Source: Octopus sinensis
Taxonomy: Eukaryota
Assembly: GCF_006345805.1 (NCBI RefSeq)
Contig: NW_021836555.1
Span: 1-23,678 of the forward strand
Direction of reading: 5' to 3'
DNA length: 23,678 bases
Shown one piece after another: positions 4,100-22,576 of this stretch. Position numbers and translations under genes: made by a program. A model generated the notes under the pieces. It had not been told where the DNA came from, ran no database searches, and was given only the letters and a program-made list of their open reading frames with translations. How positions within the stretch are numbered: the stretch's first letter is position 1; every line of letters begins with the position of its first letter.

Positions 4100-4980
4100 T
4101 TTCATCTTGTAGTTTCATCCTATCGGCGTGGTTTGCAGCCGAAGTAAGGTTCGCAGCGGAAGAATCGATCCTCGCTTTGAGAAGGTATCCACAACGGTAA
4201 CATCCCATACGAGGGCTATTGTCATCCCGTCAGGCTTTTTGCCGTCTCCCCGATCGAGTCCGACCGGATCGAGGAGGCACGAATGGCCCGTCGATTCGAG
4301 ACCGGCCTTCACGATTTTATTGAGGACCTTGTGTCTGTGTTCCCTGCCTGCGCTCGTCTTGCAGGAAAGTGGGTGCAGTCCCTTTTCGTCAACGCCTCGC
4401 CCCATCTGCAGCGGTGTTTTGTGCAAACATCCAGGCCGAGTCGGTGAGCGACTCCGATGGGTATAGCAGCATCATCTAGCAACGTCCCGATACTGGAGAA
4501 AGGGAGAGCATTCAGCCAGCTGCCAGAGTGAGGGGCGGATGCCGCACGAAGGCATACCAGGCGGTGTTGGTCAAGGTTTGCAAAGAGCTCAGACACACGC
4601 GCTCGGCATGCGATAGTGTCCCAGGTACGTTGGGAGGAGAAATCTCCAGGCCTCTCAGAAAAGGAGCGATCCCAGGTAGTAAGCCAATCCGACAAAGCAC
4701 CGTTCAGGCAAGATTCGAAAGGTTTGAGTAGGATCTCCAAGGCCAAGTTGTTGCACATCGAAATGGAGGATAGATATGCCAGGAGTATCAAAGCACTTGC
4801 AGTTGCCTTAGACAAAGATACACAGCTCAGGTGGAAATGGGCATCACAGAGGATGCAGTGGATCCCCCGTTTGCGGGGGTTTGACACAAGTCACGAGTCG
4901 TGACTCACGACTGACATACTGTCGGGGAGCGAGTGAACTGTTCAGGTTTCTTCAGAGTTCGAGTTTCTTCTGAGTTCGTT
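4100..4980 (-). mobile_element. CRE-like non-LTR retrotransposon remnant A (partial PHD finger fused to the RLE region, RT absent)
   Basis: IHCILCDAHFHLSC (PHD) joined to SQRTWD...HSGSWLNALP...CRW...HPLSC...RH...KPDG...LVWDVTVVDT, the CCHC plus PD-(D/E)xK-type region of RLE LINEs. Confidence 0.8.
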
Positions 4981-5206
4981 TTATAAATTGCCGTCGTAGA
5001 TAAAATATTAAACTTGTATAAAGTTTTAAACTACTTAATGAGTGCCTTCATGGATGAGGTCACTATTTGAAAATCAGATCAACAAATATTTGTAATTGAT
5101 TAAATTAAACTTAGTTAAACAAAACCAACAAAAAAGTTAAAAAAAACAAGAAATAAGAAAAGTTATTTTTTAAGTAGCCAATCTATAGTGAAGACTGGAG
5201 GATCTT

Positions 5207-10350: not shown

Positions 10351-10549
10351 AAGGTGCGAAACTGTGCCTACCGAATATGTTTGAGAATCCAGTTAATCGC
10401 TGACACGAAATGTCACCATTTCTTACTTATATTTGAGGCGATTTTTTAGCCTACAAAATAAAAAATTTAACATAAAATTTAACTTTATGAACCTAAAAAC
10501 TAAAAAAATTAACCCCAAAATTTAACTTAATAACCAAAAACTAAAAATG

Positions 10550-11095
10550 TTTTCCGGAAGCTTTCCGCTAAGCTTCTCTGTCATGCCATAGTCCCTTGTT
10601 TGTCTCCAAACTTTCTGTCCGCTCAACTTGGTGTCGGCGTTTCCAATGGTTGCGAGGCCGCAGCTTATTCTGATCGTGACCTGTTAGAATCTTCCGAGGA
10701 GTTTATCATGGTCAAACTGGACGTATCTAATGCTTTTAACTCCATCAGACAGGATCACTTACTGGAGTGCTGCCGCAAAATGGCTCCTTCCGCATACTCC
10801 CTCGTACATCTCGCTTACGCATCCCCAAGCATATTTATGTTTGACGACGTTCCGATCACCTCGTCTACTGGGGTCCAGCAAGGCGATCCCCTGGGTCTTG
10901 TGCTTTTCGCCCTAGACGTTAATGGCATCGCCCATTCTGTCCGGTCACATTTTATCATTCGGTACCTGGACGACGGCACCATTTGTAGTCCTCTTGAGGT
11001 CGTTTTCGACGACCGCCGGTTTATCCTCCTATCACTCTCGGCTATTGCCTATCTATCAACGCAAAAAAATCTGAAATCGCGAACATCGGCTTTCA
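10550..11095 (+). mobile_element. CRE-like non-LTR reverse transcriptase fragment
   Basis: QLGVGVSNGCEAA, KLDVSNAFNSI, GVQQGDPLG and YLDDG. Confidence 0.85.
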
Positions 11096-11165
11096 ACATA
11101 GTTTATTCTTTGATCATTTTAATATATGTGAATTTTAAATCATTTTAATTGCGGCAGCAGATATA

Positions 11166-12592
11166 CAGTAAAACCTCTGGTGCTCGCCACCTCTGTTACT
11201 CGCCACCTCTATTGCTCGCCACATATTTTCCAAAAAATTAAAAATTTCTAGTAAATTTTGATAAATATTCTATTGCTCGCCATTTTCTAAATCTCGCCAT
11301 TAATTTTTTAAAATATTTTTTTTGGTTAAACTATTTTTTATATTAAAATATTTCAACCATGCTAAATTCAACATGCGTAAGAGCACAAGATTGTCTTTTA
11401 ATGAAAAACGTCGCATTATTGGGTACATGGAGGAGAACAAAAATCTCACGATGGACCGTATAGCTTAAATTTTTTCTTCTGTTTTAAAGAAAAAAATATC
11501 TCGAAGGGCTGTAAACGATTTTAGACTTAGAAAAGAGAAAATACTGTCTACTGATCCTATTTTCTCCAATAAGAAGAGATTATCTAACTTAACTTATTCT
11601 GTTATTGACACCGAACTATTAACTTGGATGGAATACATTGAGCTGCAGTTGATCAGAAACAAGAAATTGATCTCTGCAAAGATTCAACAATATAATGCTG
11701 AAAACATTTATAACGCTGATGAAACTGGGATTTTTTTTACAAATCTATCCAGTCAAAAAGTGTTTGTCAGAAGGTTCGATATGGACATAAAATCCTTAAA
11801 GAACGGTTTAATTTTTATTTATTTTTTTAGATTTTCTTTGTTGCTATGCTCAAATATGACTGGGACAAACAAAAAAATTCCACTTATGATTGGAAAGTTC
11901 CAGAAACCTCGCTGCTTTAAAAATTTTAAAGTCTAAAATTTTGTCGATTACTGTCATTCACCAAAAGCATGGATGACAAGTAAAATTTTTAACGAATGGC
12001 TTTTAACATGGGATAGGCATCTAAAAAAACAAAAAATTCTTTTAGTTGTGGATCGATGCCCATCCCATAAACTTTACGCTGATTTAGAGTCAATTGAAGT
12101 TTTTTACCTACCTTCGAAGACTACAACAATTCTACAACCAATGGATCAAGGAATCATTAGATCCTTCAAAGGACATTTTAATAAACTTAAATTTGAGTTT
12201 ATGTTAGAAAAATTTGAAAATGGAGAAAATCCACTGGAAGCTCAAACATAATTAACTTTAAAAGACGGTCCTCTTTTTGCATATTTTACCTGGAAAAAAG
12301 TAACGACCAAAACAAGTACAAATTGTTTCGGACATTCAAAATGGATCGAATGTGAAAATCAACTCGAAAGACCAACTGTTGAAATTGATAATTTTTAGTT
12401 AATTTTTTCTTTTTAATTTCTTTCGATTCTCTTTGTTTCTTTGCTCAAATATGACTTGGAAGGCTCACTTAGAAAAGTATCGAAAACCGAGATGTTTTCA
12501 AAATTTATTGATTATTTCCATTGCTCGCCAAATTCTATTGCTCGCCATTTTTTCTTCGGTCCCGAAAATGGCGAGCACCAGAGGTTTTACTG
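11166..12592 (+). mobile_element. Tigger/pogo DNA transposon, defective
   Basis: Perfect 24-bp TIRs CAGTAAAACCTCTGGTGCTCGCCA (11166-11189, 12569-12592), TA on both flanks, and subterminal CTCGCCA repeats. Transposase remnants include an HTH-like start RLSFNEKRRII, YNADETG, CSNMTG, KPRCFK, WMT, LLVVD and LQPMDQGII; stops, a frameshift and a deletion. Confidence 0.95.
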
Positions 12593-12699
12593 TATGTGAA
12601 TTGATCATTTTAATTATGTTTAAAATATCATTTTTGAAGCTTTTTGTATATGTATTTTTAATAAATTTGTTGCCATTTCCAAATCCTAACTTTCAAATT

Positions 12700-14220: not shown

Positions 14221-14344
14221 GGGCTATATTAGCTCCGCTAAATGATGAGGTACTTAATATAAATTTAGATTTATTAATCAAAATCCCATTAACCAACGTG
14301 CGTTGTTGTTGTTGTTTTTAAACGCTTCTCGATCTGTGTGAAAT

Positions 14345-15298
14345 ATATGACAAACTCTGAAGAAAATCGAACTATGAAAAAACCTGAACAGTTCACTCGC
14401 TCCCCGACAGTATGTCAGTCGTGCCTCGTGTCAAACCCCCGCAAACGGGGAATCCACTGCGCCCTCTGCAATGCCCATTTCCACCTGAGCTGTGTATCTT
14501 TGTCTAAGGCGACTGCAAGTGCCTTGGGCGCATGGCACTGTGCCCGCTGCCTCTTCAACTCAAAGGGCGCTGGGCCAAATCGGCGACCCTCTCGTACTAC
14601 TACCCGCCACAATCTCTCGACTGAAGAATTTATTCTTTCCCTGTCTTTGCTTCGTGGCACAAGAGACATCCCTCTCCGCATTCCCAAACAAGCCCGCCTG
14701 ACGGCCGCTTCCTGCCTCGAAAAAATTATCTCAGAAGCACTCAGTTCCGAAGAAGACCTCCCGTGGTTCCGTATCTTCCTGTTTGCTTGATTCGGCCCTC
14801 GCTCTTTGAAAACGCATTTCTCTGAAGTCCCTTCCGATGTCTTTTCTCAGCGAGACTGGGACAAAATTCTTTGCCGTCGATCTTCAACTGACTTGGACCC
14901 ACTCCTCGTCCAACACAGACTGGCTTGTTTCTGTTCCGCCTGTCAGCCATACTCAGGCTCCTGGCTGAATGTGCTCCTTTCTCCGCTTTTGGATACTGTC
15001 CTCGATAGGCATTCACTCCGTTTGGGTATCTGTAATTGCCTTGGACTCCCTGTCTGCAGACTTCACCCATGTCGTTGTGGGGATAAAGTTGACACCTTTG
15101 GGCTACATCCTCTGTCTTGTCGAATGAGCGCTGGCCGATTTCCTCGACACACTGAAATTAACAATCTAATTCACAAAGCTCTGGAAAGAGCTGGTTTCCC
15201 TTCTATTCTGGAACCGACGGGCCTTGTTTTTGAAGATGCAAAACGTCCAGACGGCTGTACGCTTTTCGCTTTTGAATCCGGGAAGCAGCTCGTTTTGG
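14345..15298 (+). mobile_element. CRE-like non-LTR remnant B (complete PHD finger plus RLE region, RT absent)
   Basis: CQSC...IHCALCNAHFHLSC...WHCARC (C4HC3) and RIPKQARLTAA, then SQRDWD...SGSWL...CRCG...HPLSC...RH...KRPDG. Confidence 0.85.
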
Positions 15299-15400
15299 AA
15301 AAAAATAAACTTAATTGAATTCAAAATGACTGACAATATTAAATGTTATTTAATTTTTTAAATAATTCATTTAAAACCAAATATTAATGAAGTCAACAAA

Positions 15401-16055
15401 CTAATAAATTCTCCCAGCGAGACGGAGGGAACAGCTGTTGCCACGCATGACAGCCAGCAGGATCCTCTGAATGAGGAAAGTAAATTCCCTAGGGTCCTTG
15501 GACCGCGAAGAACAAAGATGTCCCAATTTCTTTAGGAAGTGAGGGTCCCGGAGCCAAAGACGCCGGAAGTCTCGACAACGATTGGCCAAAACCAAAAGTC
15601 ATCCATCAAAGACTGATATTTCCGGCCTTCGTCGAAAGCTCAGCTTATTAGCACGAGACCCAGCAAGAGAGGCCGATTCGTTGATGAAAGACTTGAGAAG
15701 GTATCCACACAAGTGGAATCCCAGACCAAAGGTCTCCCAGAATAAAACGAGAACAACGTAGAGCCGTCCGGCCTTTTCCCGTCACCACGGTCGAGACCCT
15801 TAGGCTCAAGGACAGAAGGTAGCCGGCCTTTTCGAGTGAGTCGAGAATGATTCTGTTAATCGCCGAATGCGTGGAATACGACCGCGCTTTTCTTGCAGGA
15901 GAGGGCATGGAGCCCGTATACGTCCATAGTAGATCCGCACCGGCAGGGGTGGGGACTACAGATCGGAAGTCCGAGGCGGAGGCAAATGCCAAACGGAGGG
16001 CGTCGGAGTCAAGACAGGTGTCCAATGGGTCGAAGGAAGGCAGTTAAGCCAAGAG
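15401..16055 (-). mobile_element. CRE-like non-LTR 3' fragment C (RLE to stop codon)
   Basis: Across frames: HPCRCG...GLHALSC, RPDG...[15 protein letters not shown] and QRILLAVMRGN; tail-to-tail with remnant B. Confidence 0.85.
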
Positions 16056-19000
16056 CCAGAAATGCGGTTGGCGAAATTGTTCGAAATTTTTTAAATGTTC
16101 GAAATTTATCGAATTAATTGAAATAATTATCACGTGTTATTCATGTTTTTTTTTCTTTTGTTGTGCTTCTGCTTGTAAATTTTATTTATTTATTTATTTA
16201 CCCCCGGCCCCTTCAATTGAAGGAAGCCGGTGGCTAACAAGAACGTTAGGCCAATGTCGGACGCTCCCAAAGATCCCCGATCGTGATCCGGTGTTCCGAG
16301 GAAGTAGAAGGCGGGCCTGGACAGGAGAAAAGGTCGTTGAGGGAATAGGAAGGGGTTATTTCACCAAGACCGATTTTCATGCGATAATCGTGTAGGCCGT
16401 ATGGTGGCCACAGCGGAGACGAGCCAAGTTCACTCGGGCTTCTCTTGAGAGGGAGGATTCGATCTTATTAATTGGCGGCGGAAGGCGTCCCAGAAGCTTG
16501 TTTATTCCAAGACATCTGATTGCCCTCGTAGCCACCAGGTCGTGAATCCCCTTCTGGTTAATGTCCGGAGGGGATCGTATAAGCTTGCGGACTTTGTCCG
16601 CGAGGGTCGAAACTATTCTCCTGTTGTTAGTGGAGTGCCAGAGGAAGTAGCCAGGGTGATTTAGGGTTCGGCATTTGTCAAGAAATTGCAGCCCGAGCAT
16701 TTCAAAATGGTCACTGATTGGAAGGATTTTCGATTCCCAATGTAGGTGGTCGGTAGGTGTCGTTTTTAGACAGCCGGTAATAATTCGTAATGCTGAGTTT
16801 TGAGTTCTCTGAAGTTTTTCAAGGTTTGTATTAGATAAGCAGGAACCCCAAGCAGGGATGGCGTAGTTCATAGTTGTTCTAATAAACTGCTTGTATACAG
16901 TTTTTAGACTTTCCTTATCCTGCCCAAATGAAGTCCCCGCAATAGCTCGGAGCACATTGAGTTTTTTCTGGGATTTTCCACAGATATATGAAACATGTTT
17001 CGAGAAGGACAAACAGCAATCAAATATCAGACCCAAGATTTTGGGGGTTTTTCAACTGGGAGTGGAGTGTTTGTCTAGGAATAGTTTAGGCTCTAAGTTG
17101 AACTGACGGCGGTCAGTTGTGAATAGCGTAACAGATGATTTGGAAGGAGAAGGTTGAAGAAGATTGCATTTCAGCAGCCAGGACGAAAGAGTGTTCATGT
17201 GTTCCTGCAGAAATCCAGAAGCGGTGATTATGTTTTGGTGGCGGGAGGCAAAAATTAAGTCATCAGCGTAGGAGAGAGTAGAGTATTATTGTTCGTCGGG
17301 ATATTTGACAGATGTAAGTTAAATAAGGCAGGTGAAAGGACCGAGCCTTGGGGAACTCCCGTTAGGCAAGTATTTGTAGCGTGAGTAAGAAGACATGATT
17401 GTGGTGCGACCAAGACGCCCAGAGAGAAAGAGAGTAGCCATGACTTATTTGGTGGGGGAATTCCGTATCGGTTATTTTCCTACACAGAACGTGTCTTGAC
17501 GTTCTGTCAAATGCCTTTTCAATGTCGATGGATGCAATAATTGTTCTTTGAGGTGGCTTATGATTGTTAAAACCCATCCGCAATGAATTGTGTCAGTTTT
17601 TGAAAGATGGGTGGAAGTGGAATGCAAAGAACGAAAGCCATGTTGAGATTCAGCAAATGGGAGGAAAGGTTTTATGATGCTCAATACAACTCGCTCTCTC
17701 TGTTATTTTTGAAACCACTGAGATCAAAGAGATAGGTCGAAAAGAGGAGGGGTCAGATCACGATTTGGCTTTGGGATAGGGATGATGGTAGATTTTCTTC
17801 TTCCAAGCATAGGAACCAGACCATGGTTGATCGAGTATTCGATTAATTGGTCAGAGCCAGAAAGCCATTAGGACCCAGATTTTTTAGGTGGTGGATGGCA
17901 AGGCCATCAGGACCTCTGGCGTTAGAATTCCGCGAGTTAACACAAGTTGCCTGGTAAATGATTCTGGGATGTTAATATAGTCAGTAGAATTGTCATTTGA
18001 CTTATAATGTGATTTTCTTACGAAACGAGATCCTTTGGGGTAGGAAGGTGACTGATTTTTGCATAATGGCGAATTAAGATGTTGGCTTGATCCTGGAAAG
18101 ATAGGACAGATTTTTGGTCGAGATACCGGTGGCATGTGAGAGGGGACATGTTTGCCTCGTGTGAATTTTCTTGAGGGTTCTCCAGAAAGCACGGGATCCA
18201 GTATTGGGGTTATTGAAGTGATAAAATCATTCCATTCGTCAGTTTTATGTTTCTTGATTAATTCGTCAATTTGTTTGTTGATTTCTGCTAGAGATTCTCA
18301 TTTCCATTGATAGAAGTCGTCGATTTGATCCTCCTTCGTTTTTTGAATAGTTCAATGATAGGTGGGGGGAAGTGGAGGCCGTGATTCGGATGAAGCCGCG
18401 GGAATAAATTTTTTGTCCGCAGAAAGAAGTGTACTAGTAAAGAAAGCAACGGCAGCGTCAAATGATTGAATGGAGGAGCAAGAAAAATTACTGAATATAC
18501 GTTCAGTTTCACTCCTGAACGAGTCCCATTTCCCACGTTTGTAGTTAATGTAGGTCTTCGTAATTCTCTTCTTACAGGGTGATGGTTTATTTGATTAGAA
18601 TAGGATTGTGGTCCGTTGGTAGGTCGTACAGAACTGTCCATTTGGCGTCGAGGGCGATGTTTGGGGAACATAAGGTAATGTCAGGAGAAGTGTTTGAATC
18701 TCCAGGTCGCATTGCACAGCGGGTGTGTAGAAGAGGGTTGTTTAGAGTGATCAATTCTTCCGCATCCGTTGTGATTGGCTGGCCACGTTTGTCAGTTTTG
18801 TTTGTGGATAACCAGAGAGGATGGTGGGCGTTGAAGTCGCCACATAGAATACAGTTTTCAATTGAAAAAAGAGGCAGTAAGTTCGGTGTATAATTGGGAG
18901 CACATGACGAAATCGGGGGATATATGTGTTAACAACAGAGTAACATATCTTGTTAATGTTAATTTGAATAGATGAAATTTCGGTAAATCGATCATTAGTT

Positions 19001-19269
19001 AAGAGAGATTCAATGTTGGCAGTTGAGTCTGCAAAGGGAATGGCCTCGTGAATGAGTAATGAGACCACCGCCAGGCTTTCCAGACTGGCGGTCACGACGA
19101 ATGGTGGAATATCCCTTAAAACGGGGGGTTTGGGATTTTGGAGTAAGTTTGGTCTCTTGAATAAGAGCTATATCAATAGAGTTCGTGTGTAAAAGTAGCG
19201 TAGGTCATTGCATTTCTTGGAAATCCCGTTGATGTTCAATTGAAGGATGGTTAGTGTTCTAATAGGCTC

Positions 19270-19293
19270 AGGTCCAGGGTTTTGTTCCACATC
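19270..19293 (-). other. 2A-like ribosome-skipping motif DVEQNPGP
   Basis: CGDVEQNPGP matches D(V/I)ExNPGP and sits in frame just upstream of the APE domain. Confidence 0.85.
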
Positions 19294-19394
19294 TCCACAC
19301 CGATCAACAATAGAGTCAGGGAACGTAAGCTTGGCGCTCGTCCCGTAGCCACTACCAACCAAACGTTGACAGGTTGGTTGGCAAGGGGGAAAAT

Positions 19395-19465
19395 TGGTTC
19401 TGTTTGTTACTGATGTGAAATCAGCATCCAATCGTCTCCACGAGAAGGTGAACCACATGACGATC
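19395..19465 (-). ncRNA. HDV-like self-cleaving ribozyme at the LINE 5' end
   Basis: GAUCGUC AUG UGGUUC ACC UUCUCGU GGA GACGAUU GG A UGCUGAU UUCAC AUCAGUA A C AAACA GAACCA. P1 is 7 bp with a G-U first pair, P2 6 bp, P3 2 of 3 bp, and P4 7 bp. Confidence 0.8.
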
Positions 19466-19959
19466 TGTAAATTTTATTTCATTTTTTCTTGCTATTAATG
19501 TTTTATTGTTTAATATTTTTGATTATTTATTTGTTTGAAATTATTTAATTTGACTACTGGTAAAATATCTTGGATAAAGTTTATTTTGCAAGCGAATTTA
19601 TATTCACTTTATCAATTAATTAATCTCCATTCATAAGAACTTTTTACATTAAATTTTTCTATTGTCTATTTGGATTTTTCAGTATTTCTATCTTTTTTCC
19701 ACTATTTTATTGATTATTTTTATAGTTGTAGCATCAATTCGAATTAATAATTCCTCTAGCACCTTGTTGTATAGTGCCAAATCAGGGAATTATTATTCAT
19801 TTTATTTCATTTTTGGTAATTTCACTTTTATTTCCAAAGACAGAAGCGAGTTTTTTTAATTCATAGATTGATTTCTTTTTTCCAAATTTGGAATTAAAAT
19901 AAGTAGCAATGAGCGGCTAACCTCCTTTGGGGACTCGTTTAAGACTCTGATTTGAAAAA

Positions 19960-20414: not shown

Positions 20415-22576
20415 CAGGGTCACCAAACTTTTTGCACTCGCGGGCCGGATTGACCCCAACACAATGAACGCGGGCCGGAGCACGTGCATAGGATTATAAT
20501 TTTACTAGAAATTCATAAGTGTGTTTTTTACAATAAAAACTAATTTAACAAAATAAAGTAAACAAAAAAAATTTTAATGAAGCTATGGAACTGTGATCTT
20601 TTTTTGATAAGTTCATCAATTTGGTTTTAAATTGCTGCATCCTATCATGAGAATTGATTTTAAGTGTCCGTCAGTCAATCTTGCACGATGGGCAGACTTA
20701 ACAATATTTCATCCTCGAAAACGTTTGCTCACATTGGTAAGTTGTGCCAAATATAAATCATCTTTATCGCGCAAATTCTTTAGTCTCGGAACTCATCATC
20801 CTTGAGATATTCGTAGAACTCAGCGAGTTTGGTCCGTCTGTGACAATCTTTGAGCTGTTCATTTGATTGTAAGTCAATAACTTCTAATTGTAATTCATGT
20901 TGAACATTTTCAACATACAAGAAAATGGATTTCGAACAAAAATATATCGCTTTCATTTTGTCAAGTTCAGAAAACTTATGTAAAAAATGATGTTTTAATT
21001 CTTTGATAATTCCAATTTGGAAAGTAATGTCGATCGCATTACAGTTTGCCTCACAAAAACTTTTAAAACAAGAAAAGGTGAAAACTGACGTACTCCAAGT
21101 TGTGACTCGAATAACATCAATTTTTGTCGAAATGCTTTAATTATCCTGTAGAAATCACAAATTAAGTTTTCCTTCCTTGTAATTTCAGATTTAGCTCATT
21201 CATGTGAGTTGTAACATCAACCAAAAATGATAATTTTGATAGCCAAGCAAGATCTGATAATTCGGGATAATAGTTATTTTTACTGGTTAGAAAAATATCA
21301 ATCTCACTTCGGAGTTTATAAAATCTATTTAATACATTACCACAGCTAAGCCATCTAACTGCAGTGTAATATGGTAAGTCAAAATATTCAGATCCAAAAT
21401 CGTCAAGTAAAACTTTAAACTGACGGTGATTAAGTGAGCTCCCTCGAACAAAGTTTATTATGCGAATACTGGATTCAACACACATGAAATATTAAGAGCC
21501 TTCGCACATAGTGCGTGCTGATGAAGGATGCAATGAATGAACAAAGTGTTTGAAATATATAATTCCTCCAATTTATTAGTTATTTGCCCAACTAGACCCT
21601 TTTTAGAACCAGCCATATTCTTTGCCCCGTCAATCGTAACACAACTCAGTTTTCTCCCATTCAAGGTTATAGTCACTTATAGTTTGTTCCAATTCATCAA
21701 AAAATCTTTTCCAGTGGTTGTTCCATGATAGAACAAACAGATGCCAGTTCTTCAGTTATGGAAATATTCTCATCAACTCCACGAATAAAAATAAGAAGTT
21801 GCGATGTTCCCGAAATGTCAACTGACTCATCCATGCAAGAGAATACCACAACATATTACTTGTCTTTTCACAAATTTGTAAATATATATTTTTTCCAAGC
21901 TCTTCAGTTCTCCGTGATACAGAACTCGCCGACAAACTTATTCCATCAAATAAGGAAGAATTTAGTGGGCCACAAACATTAACTGCTTCAATAATGCAAT
22001 TTTTGATATACATCCCATCACTAAAGGGTTTCCCGTGTTGTGAAATAATTTTCGTTATCTCGTATCCAGCTCTTGTTACATTTTCATTATTTTCAAAATT
22101 TTTTTTTATAAGGCCTTGTTGAATTTGTAAAGTGCGTTTCAGTGATTCAACTTTATCCTCACGTAGCTTTCCAGTGTACTTGGAATATATCGAGCATGAT
22201 TCTTTTCATAATGACGTCGAATGTTATACTCCTTCATAACAGAGAGATGTTCGTGGCATATTAAACAATAAGCTTTCTGCTTTAATTCATTCTCTTTCGC
22301 AAAAAAATACTTCAATTCCCATAATTTATTGAATACACGGCATTCGCGGTCAACCTTTCTTTTCATATTAGACATAGCAACAAAGAAAAATTTAACGTTA
22401 ATGCTGATAAGTTTTTTTTCGAATTAAATCTTGCAAAATAGTTTAATTTTTGTAATTAAAGTTTTTATTTAATTAATTATTAAGGTATTAATTGAATATC
22501 TCGAAATAGTGCGCGGGCCGGATAAAATTTGTCGCGGGCCGGATCCGGCCCGCGGGCCTTAGTTTGGTGACGTCTG
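20415..22576 (-). mobile_element. hAT transposon of the Buster/SPIN (GTF2IRD2-like) type, defective
   Basis: TIRs CAGGGTCACCAAAC / CAGACGTCACCAAAC, 8-bp TSD ATCTACAT (20407-20414, 22577-22584) with central TA, and GCGGGCCGGAT subterminal repeats. Transposase remnants (22375 to about 20575): CLIC...NIRRHY, DGAKNMAG, HCILHQHALC, YTAVRWLS and LNLKLQG. Confidence 0.95.

Follow-up and report, generated by a model that had tools for sequence, protein, structure and literature searches.

The stretch analysed here, called the window, comprises 23,678 nucleotides of contig NW_021836555.1 of Octopus sinensis. It contains on its reverse strand a full-length copy of a LINE family, designated family A, with an HDV-like fold at the very 5′ end of the element (Table 1). 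Elsewhere in the window, positions 4113–4900, 10534–11148, 14293–15318 and 15648–16043 hold what we take to be remnants of RT elements, marked by PHD-like motifs and by motifs of a restriction-like endonuclease; segments 4789–4985 and 14344–14526 are inverted copies. At 11163–12595 and 20780–22205 lie a perfect inverted repeat of 27 bp that encloses a broken, presumably DDE-type frame, and what is presumably a hAT-like transposase, also broken.

Table 1. The family-A copy of the window and the parts of its 5′ fold (fold nucleotides are counted from the first base of the element, G1).
Feature	Position in window	Strand	Remarks
Full-length LINE copy, family A	16188–19465	−	3278 bp; TSD-bounded
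TSD, 5′ copy	19466–19479	−	14 bp; adjoins G1
TSD, 3′ copy	16174–16187	−	14 bp
Single ORF	16190–19458	−	frameshifted in window copy; 1093 codons open in L041
2A motif GDVEQNPGP	19270–19296	−	end of ~63-residue leader; signature from PMC3708506
APE domain	about 19240–18595	−	approximate transfer of L041 coordinates
RT domain	about 17775–17030	−	approximate transfer of L041 coordinates
(TAAA)n tail	16188–16200	−	also provides stop codon
HDV-like nested double pseudoknot	19395–19465	−	element nt 1–71; descriptor, covariation
P1, 5′ strand	19459–19465	−	pairs with 19430–19436; G1 = predicted 5′ end of cleavage product
J1/2 (AUG)	19456–19458	−	likely ORF start codon
P2, 5′ strand	19450–19455	−	pairs with 19395–19400
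P3 (ACC/GGA) around L3	19437–19449	−	top pair A17-A29 open
L3 (UUCUCGU)	19440–19446	−
P1, 3′ strand	19430–19436	−
GG of P1.1	19428–19429	−	C22-G37, U21-G38
P4 hairpin	19408–19426	−	7 bp; C57U in window copy
J4/2 (CAAACA)	19401–19406	−	6 nt; C60 = C19406, predicted general acid
P2, 3′ strand	19395–19400	−
Predicted hairpin just 3′ of fold	19348–19382	−	MFE and centroid

A DNA search of the same genome gave 40 matches, 30 of which were retained as loci. Among 20 stretches fetched whole, 17 other young copies display 97–98.6% identity with the window copy, and single-base gaps predominate among the differences. Compared with the intact copy L041, 15 other family-A copies carry 3–19 substitutions; the family spans 0–19 substitutions per 3.3 kb. 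L041 and L039 have one uninterrupted frame of about 1094 codons. RNA reads contain extra bases relative to the window at 8 places in 18400–19700; the frameshifts of the window copy are therefore copy-specific deletions or assembly errors.

All matches to the families described here lie on small contigs (C381–C13496) and none on the large contigs C1–C26 of the assembly (G000). Such small contigs have tubulins of their own, in which there is a GT-AG intron of 27 nt, and the element is present in few of the runs with the same species label. According to PMC13644364, animal introns shorter than 30 nt are reported only for myxobolids and a dicyemid. The small contigs with the element are likely those of a co-assembled parasite.

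The family-A ORF codes for APE and RT, and Pfam gave no RNase H match in it at E ≤ 0.1. The best 60 of 108 protein matches all come without RNase H, the RNase-H-bearing ones ranking after them. RT trees, which contain no named Vingi reference, place family A with unnamed RNase-H-less relatives, apart from the RNase-H-bearing ones. With a single ORF, APE and RT and no RNase H, family A is Vingi-type by architecture, named Vingi elements being compared by description only; they are described as single-ORF APE+RT elements of ~3.2 kb that likewise have no RNase H (PMC13708176, PMC5786205). As to the features of the Ingi clade, family A has no RNase H domain and has the N-terminal 2A motif. PMC3708506 reports that no 2A was detected in Vingi, in which family A differs. 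A 2A motif near the N-terminus was observed in 26 of the 60 best RNase-H-less protein matches.

The initial annotation placed an HDV-like ribozyme at the start of the element, and each part that it listed (P1, P2, L3, the GG for P1.1, a 7-bp P4 and C19406) was found in its place. The helices follow the order of the nested double pseudoknot. P1, GAUCGUC/GACGAUU, forms 7 of 7 pairs starting with G1-U36, a G1-Y pair, and P2 forms 6 of 6 in the window copy. U20, C22 and G25 in L3, the C-G pair of P1.1, the C of J4/2 and the A adjoining P2 are all present; the descriptor of PMC6326823 fixes U20, C22, G25, P1.1 and the J4/2 C. The sole difference between the window fold and the family-A majority is C57U, where G-U replaces G-C and P4 is still paired.

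A strict descriptor fails at two points, the top pair of P3 (A-A) and the J4/2 of 6 nt instead of CRRA. Decay or a variant fold had been suggested as possible reasons. Both occur in all family-A copies, except for one with an insertion in J4/2, so decay does not account for them, and the variant fold stands, its features recurring in sister families: J4/2 is 6 nt in all 13 families parsed. Because the strict descriptor fails at P3 and J4/2, the fold is filed as a variant that would work like an HDV ribozyme. The open top P3 pair and two extra J4/2 bases would represent a clade-specific geometry. The active ribozymes described in PMC3774820 include one of jewel wasp R2 whose P3 contains a mismatch, and activity is reported for a theta ribozyme in which J4/2 is longer (PMC10879173). 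C19402 was also considered as the catalytic base and rejected, being present only in family A.

The first base of the element coincides with G1. That G1 directly abuts the 14-bp TSD, as first noticed, is borne out at 19479–19466 and 16187–16174, and the TSD match disappears if the start is shifted one base inward. The family-A flanks number 24 as listed, two of which are one locus, giving 23 distinct flanks; L019 and L023, whose core failed the anchor match, are left out of the count, and duplicated loci are merged. G1 is the first base in 17 of the 23, and the other six are shorter by 1–9 nt. No upstream sequence is common to these flanks, and copies extending further 5′, which would have counted against the fold, are absent among them. 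In 16 distinct young copies the TSD adjoins G1 in eight, is one base off in one, adjoins nt 2 or 5 in two, has a duplicated part of the fold behind it in two, and is unresolved in three. Host flank between TSD and G1 occurs in none of the 16.

Duplicated ribozyme pieces between TSD and element start were observed in L009/L038, L013/L042 and L163, as if the RT had jumped or re-primed at the RNA's 5′ end. Separately, five of the 23 family-A copies (L020, L025, L027, L021 and L022) are short 5′ pieces ending at nt ~157–163, a site equivalent to window 19305–19315 on the reverse strand. Three of these are twin-priming-type inversions with TSDs, the 5′ piece lying head to head with the 3′ part and the junctions falling at nt 1, 2 and 10; L021, flanked by an 8-bp TSD, is a 5′-only insertion. 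This points to an internal site, immediately ahead of the 2A, at which priming is favoured in family A. In family M (L331–L348), about 10 of 12 distinct ribozyme-holding loci have 5′ inversions, with 90–220 nt inverted relative to the 3′ part. A literature search on twin priming together with Vingi found no papers.

Related families were identified by a protein search, after which 60 stretches were fetched, and the set was extended by DNA and pattern searches; resting on such searches, the family list is a lower bound. The related families stand at about 40–55% protein identity. Families A, B, C, L and M keep U20, C22, G25, P1.1, a paired +1 and a J4/2 of the form C-N-A-A-N-A. The C six bases before P2, equivalent to C19406, is kept in all five, which supports its nomination as the candidate catalytic C. 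P1.1 has C22-G37 in common, with G or A as the partner of U21. P1 opens with a G-U pair in A, B, C and L and with an A-U pair in M. At the top of P3, families B, C and M have A-U, L has A-C and A has A-A.

The P1 strands of these families differ, yet within each family P1 is fully paired at 7 of 7, while a combination with the 3′ strand of another family gives 2–7 pairs, mostly 4–5; in strict Watson-Crick pairs the figures are 5–7 versus 1–4. Over 16 rows from 10 families, 91% of the cells pair and the covariation score is 0.273, which none of 500 shuffles reaches; slid controls pair at 30–54%, with relatedness left in the controls. P2 contains three double-sided changes with 100% of its cells paired, and the last A of J4/2 is invariant, in the same 16 rows. 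A2 was not counted since MAFFT misaligned P1 and P4 in it, and covariation in P4 was read by eye. Pairing of P1 and P2 across copies had been proposed as a check, and both helices covary among families.

Eight further families, D to K, lack the catalytic core. They form one clade, with support of 1.0 in a first tree and 99.5/100 in a second, in which re-rooting shifted the labels on the path to the root but the D–K node lies off that path. These families retain 6 of 6 pairs in P2 and the J4/2 adenines; both inner C-G pairs of P3 are retained too, except in J as parsed. The +1 is unpaired and the L3 consensus and the P1.1 C-G are absent in all of them, while the J4/2 C is kept in two of the eight. 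In G and H the top P3 pair is open as well. D–K are predicted to be inactive, because loss of the L3 G alone abolished a Nasonia R2 ribozyme (PMC3774820). L3 is enlarged to 15–22 nt in G, H and J (L099, L126, L102, L101); in family G it forms a small hairpin, and the reading frame of L099 is preserved. The two trees disagree on how the core-less clade branches relative to (A,L,M) and (B,C), and these relative to each other; the direction, a loss, therefore leans on the known active L1Tc/Ingi ribozymes. That the scaffold persisted in a derived clade from which the catalytic core is gone makes it likely that the fold has a second role, independent of cleavage.

The 5′ starts were compared among the families. 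Flanks start at the family's own G1 in 8 of 9 cases for B and 4 of 7 for C. In core-less family D, 10 of 10 flanks share sequence that lies upstream of the +1 register, as do 4–5 of 5 in E; G often has an upstream extension of ~3 nt, and F mostly has none and starts near the same register. The core-intact families M and L keep the whole P1 5′ strand in only 3 of 11 and 1 of 3 flanks, respectively, and these ragged starts run against a tidy rule linking core and start.

A descriptor loosened so as to admit this element matches the window once, at 19465. The same descriptor matches in 9 of 100 block-shuffled windows, so a match anywhere in the window is not significant alone; that a match should fall on the very base which the TSD marks as the first has a chance of about 2e-6 per position. 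Rfam, including its HDV-type families, gave no match at E ≤ 5 or E ≤ 10. Of the HDV-like model search suggested at the outset, the loosened descriptor thus gave a match at the expected base, and Rfam none up to E ≤ 10. The nested folding energy of the window fold has a z of −0.20, pseudoknots being outside the model, and the z-scores give no signal in any of 6 sequences. P1 and P4 appear in the MFE structure and P2 and P4 in the centroid; P1 is A-U rich, and competing helices arise in nested folding. The real support for the fold is its position and the covariation across families, not the fold alone. Both uphold an HDV-like fold with its cleavage register at the first base of the element, cleavage itself being predicted.

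Model R1 (11 rows) recovers families F, G, H and I, absent from it, at E values of 4e-5 to 4e-3. Among metagenome loci of other organisms, the descriptor gave only scattered matches away from element starts in 80 loci, model R1 none in 23 of the 80 (best E 0.57), and a relaxed scan none in 14, few of these contigs reaching a 5′ end. Two sets of matches were discarded. Twenty pattern matches on large contigs have no P1/P2 and are due to chance, and a ~230-nt tandem repeat of five copies in L311 (G000:C8388) matches the core pattern by chance and is not HDV-like.

A feature overlooked at first reading is the AUG in J1/2 (nt 8–10). In L041 it opens 1093 codons, and no other in-frame AUG comes earlier than residue 252; this next in-frame Met lies past the APE motifs at 102 and 209, and NPGP is at residue 61 of the leader. 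Families A, B, D, E, F, I and M all preserve the leader frame as far as the 2A, and in the six besides A, too, the first AUG runs through the 2A. Family F uses an AUG at nt 1 and a different frame across the fold, showing that the conserved fold bases are not maintained by the protein; an L copy has lost the AUG. Because the AUG lies inside the fold, translation would have to start at nt 8–10, and the ribosome would unfold the pseudoknot. The 2A skip would then discard the ribozyme-coded leader and free the enzyme, so that the RNA sequence would be free to serve the fold.

Judged from the sequence comparisons, the fold probably cleaves before G1 and leaves a 5′-OH end shielded by the pseudoknot. 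A transcript would enter from upstream, by host read-through or by initiation a little way upstream that an internal promoter directs, and would be trimmed to G1 with C19406 as the general acid. Every element RNA would thereby obtain an identical 5′ end, and the uncapped 5′-OH would stay buried in the pseudoknot as a substitute for a cap. Shielding of the 5′ end by the fold has been argued for R2 (PMC11331408) and L1Tc (PMC3383444).

A search of sequencing runs listed no RNA run with the element. Raw RNA data contain the element in one of six runs (X12, 171 reads), with both directions alike. The depth is 16 at 19412–19455 and 1.6 at 19456–19499. No pile-up of read ends at the start is seen in X12, and coverage thins over the first 12 nt. 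These reads fit cleavage, a promoter start or DNA carry-over alike. They carry U46A, which shortens P4 to 6 bp.

The initial annotation had concluded that the element needed no promoter of its own. This claim is unsupported: it does not follow, because the 77 nt of L1Tc are promoter and ribozyme and the core-less families still spread, and an internal promoter would account just as well for the precise +1. It is conceivable, if unlikely, that an internal promoter sets the +1, with the fold a slow or secondary trimmer in the manner of Pr77/L1TcRz and the conserved bases partly promoter elements. Pr77 is both promoter and ribozyme (PMC3185411), and its DPE, CGTG at +25–28 (PMC4748587), has a counterpart in CGTG at +24–27 here; however, this CGTG is L3/P3 core sequence and thus not independent, and it is absent in family C and the core-less families. 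Eight core-less families that spread with fairly fixed starts imply that the clade has another route to 5′ ends, and an AUG with 7 nt before it is more readily used when the RNA is capped. Yet a DNA promoter leaves the compensatory changes in P1 and P2 unexplained, and an extra G before G1 is found in 0 of 9 TSD-resolved family-A copies. Such a promoter is, moreover, compatible with an active ribozyme.

That family A no longer cleaves, and that the fold is a structural 5′ module for protection, translation start or RT binding like that of the core-less clade, we consider quite unlikely. The scaffold conserved without a core indicates that structure alone can be selected, R2 templates are helped by the fold with or without cleavage (PMC11331408), and the open top P3 pair is shared with core-less G and H. 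On the other hand, core-intact L has A-C at this pair, the 6-nt J4/2 occurs also in B, C and M with their perfect P3, and family A keeps every catalytic residue and a paired +1, which all eight core-less families are without. A chance resemblance or decayed relic, for which the Rfam result, the ordinary folding energy and the 9 shuffled matches could be cited, is highly improbable and already contradicted by the exact coincidence with the TSD boundary, the fixation in a family with 0–19 substitutions per 3.3 kb, and covariation across families about 45–55% identical in protein.

With cleavage before G1 as the preferred reading, a broader proposal can be made tentatively, as one possibility short of an even chance. 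In this Vingi-type clade a single 70-nt module may combine a self-cleaving 5′ end with the translation start, through the J1/2 AUG and a leader shed by the 2A, and one lineage may have lost catalysis once, with the scaffold persisting across at least eight families.

LINEs with an HDV-like ribozyme at the 5′ end are already known, and family A alone is a new instance. It resembles L1TcRz/Pr77, an HDV-like fold in the first ~70–77 nt with its cleavage register at +1, and L1Tc is likewise an APE-type LINE with an N-terminal 2A. The Pr77 hallmark group comprises L1Tc, ingi, NARTc, RIME and SIDER (PMC3185411, PMC4035085, PMC3383444). The L1Tc primers in PMC3185411 contain GGU before the P1 3′ strand and CUAA near J4/2, like families B, C and M. 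L1Tc has RNase H and its ribozyme in the 5′ UTR (PMC3185411), whereas family A is without RNase H and its leader is 7 nt, the ORF running through the fold. Promoter activity was shown for Pr77; family A is known here from sequence alone. It was also reported that well-folded SIDER1-beta ribozymes are inactive in vitro (PMC4035085). R2 (PMC3774820, PMC11331408) has the same fold and role and tolerates a P3 mismatch, but it is site-specific and RLE-type, with a long J1/2 and cleavage often in the upstream rRNA; family A has dispersed insertions and a J1/2 of 3–4 nt.

PMC5786205 gives six clades with 5′ ribozymes, Vingi not among these, in which family A differs. In the main-text literature searched, no report was found of a Vingi ribozyme, an ORF start in J1/2 or a core-less clade; Ruminski 2011 and Kojima 2011 may list it.

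If the cleavage holds, 5′ ribozymes would extend to an RNase-H-less Vingi-type element, and Vingi is now used in RNA-based gene insertion (PMC13708176). The family would also provide a natural variant geometry, with an open top P3 pair and a 6-nt J4/2, in five covarying versions. The core-less sisters would serve as matched natural pairs, in which a fold kept for cutting can be set against one kept for protecting or translating the RNA. Should the broader proposal be true as well, an HDV ribozyme would have become a 5′ structure without catalysis, and a single genome would contain both its active and its disarmed forms.
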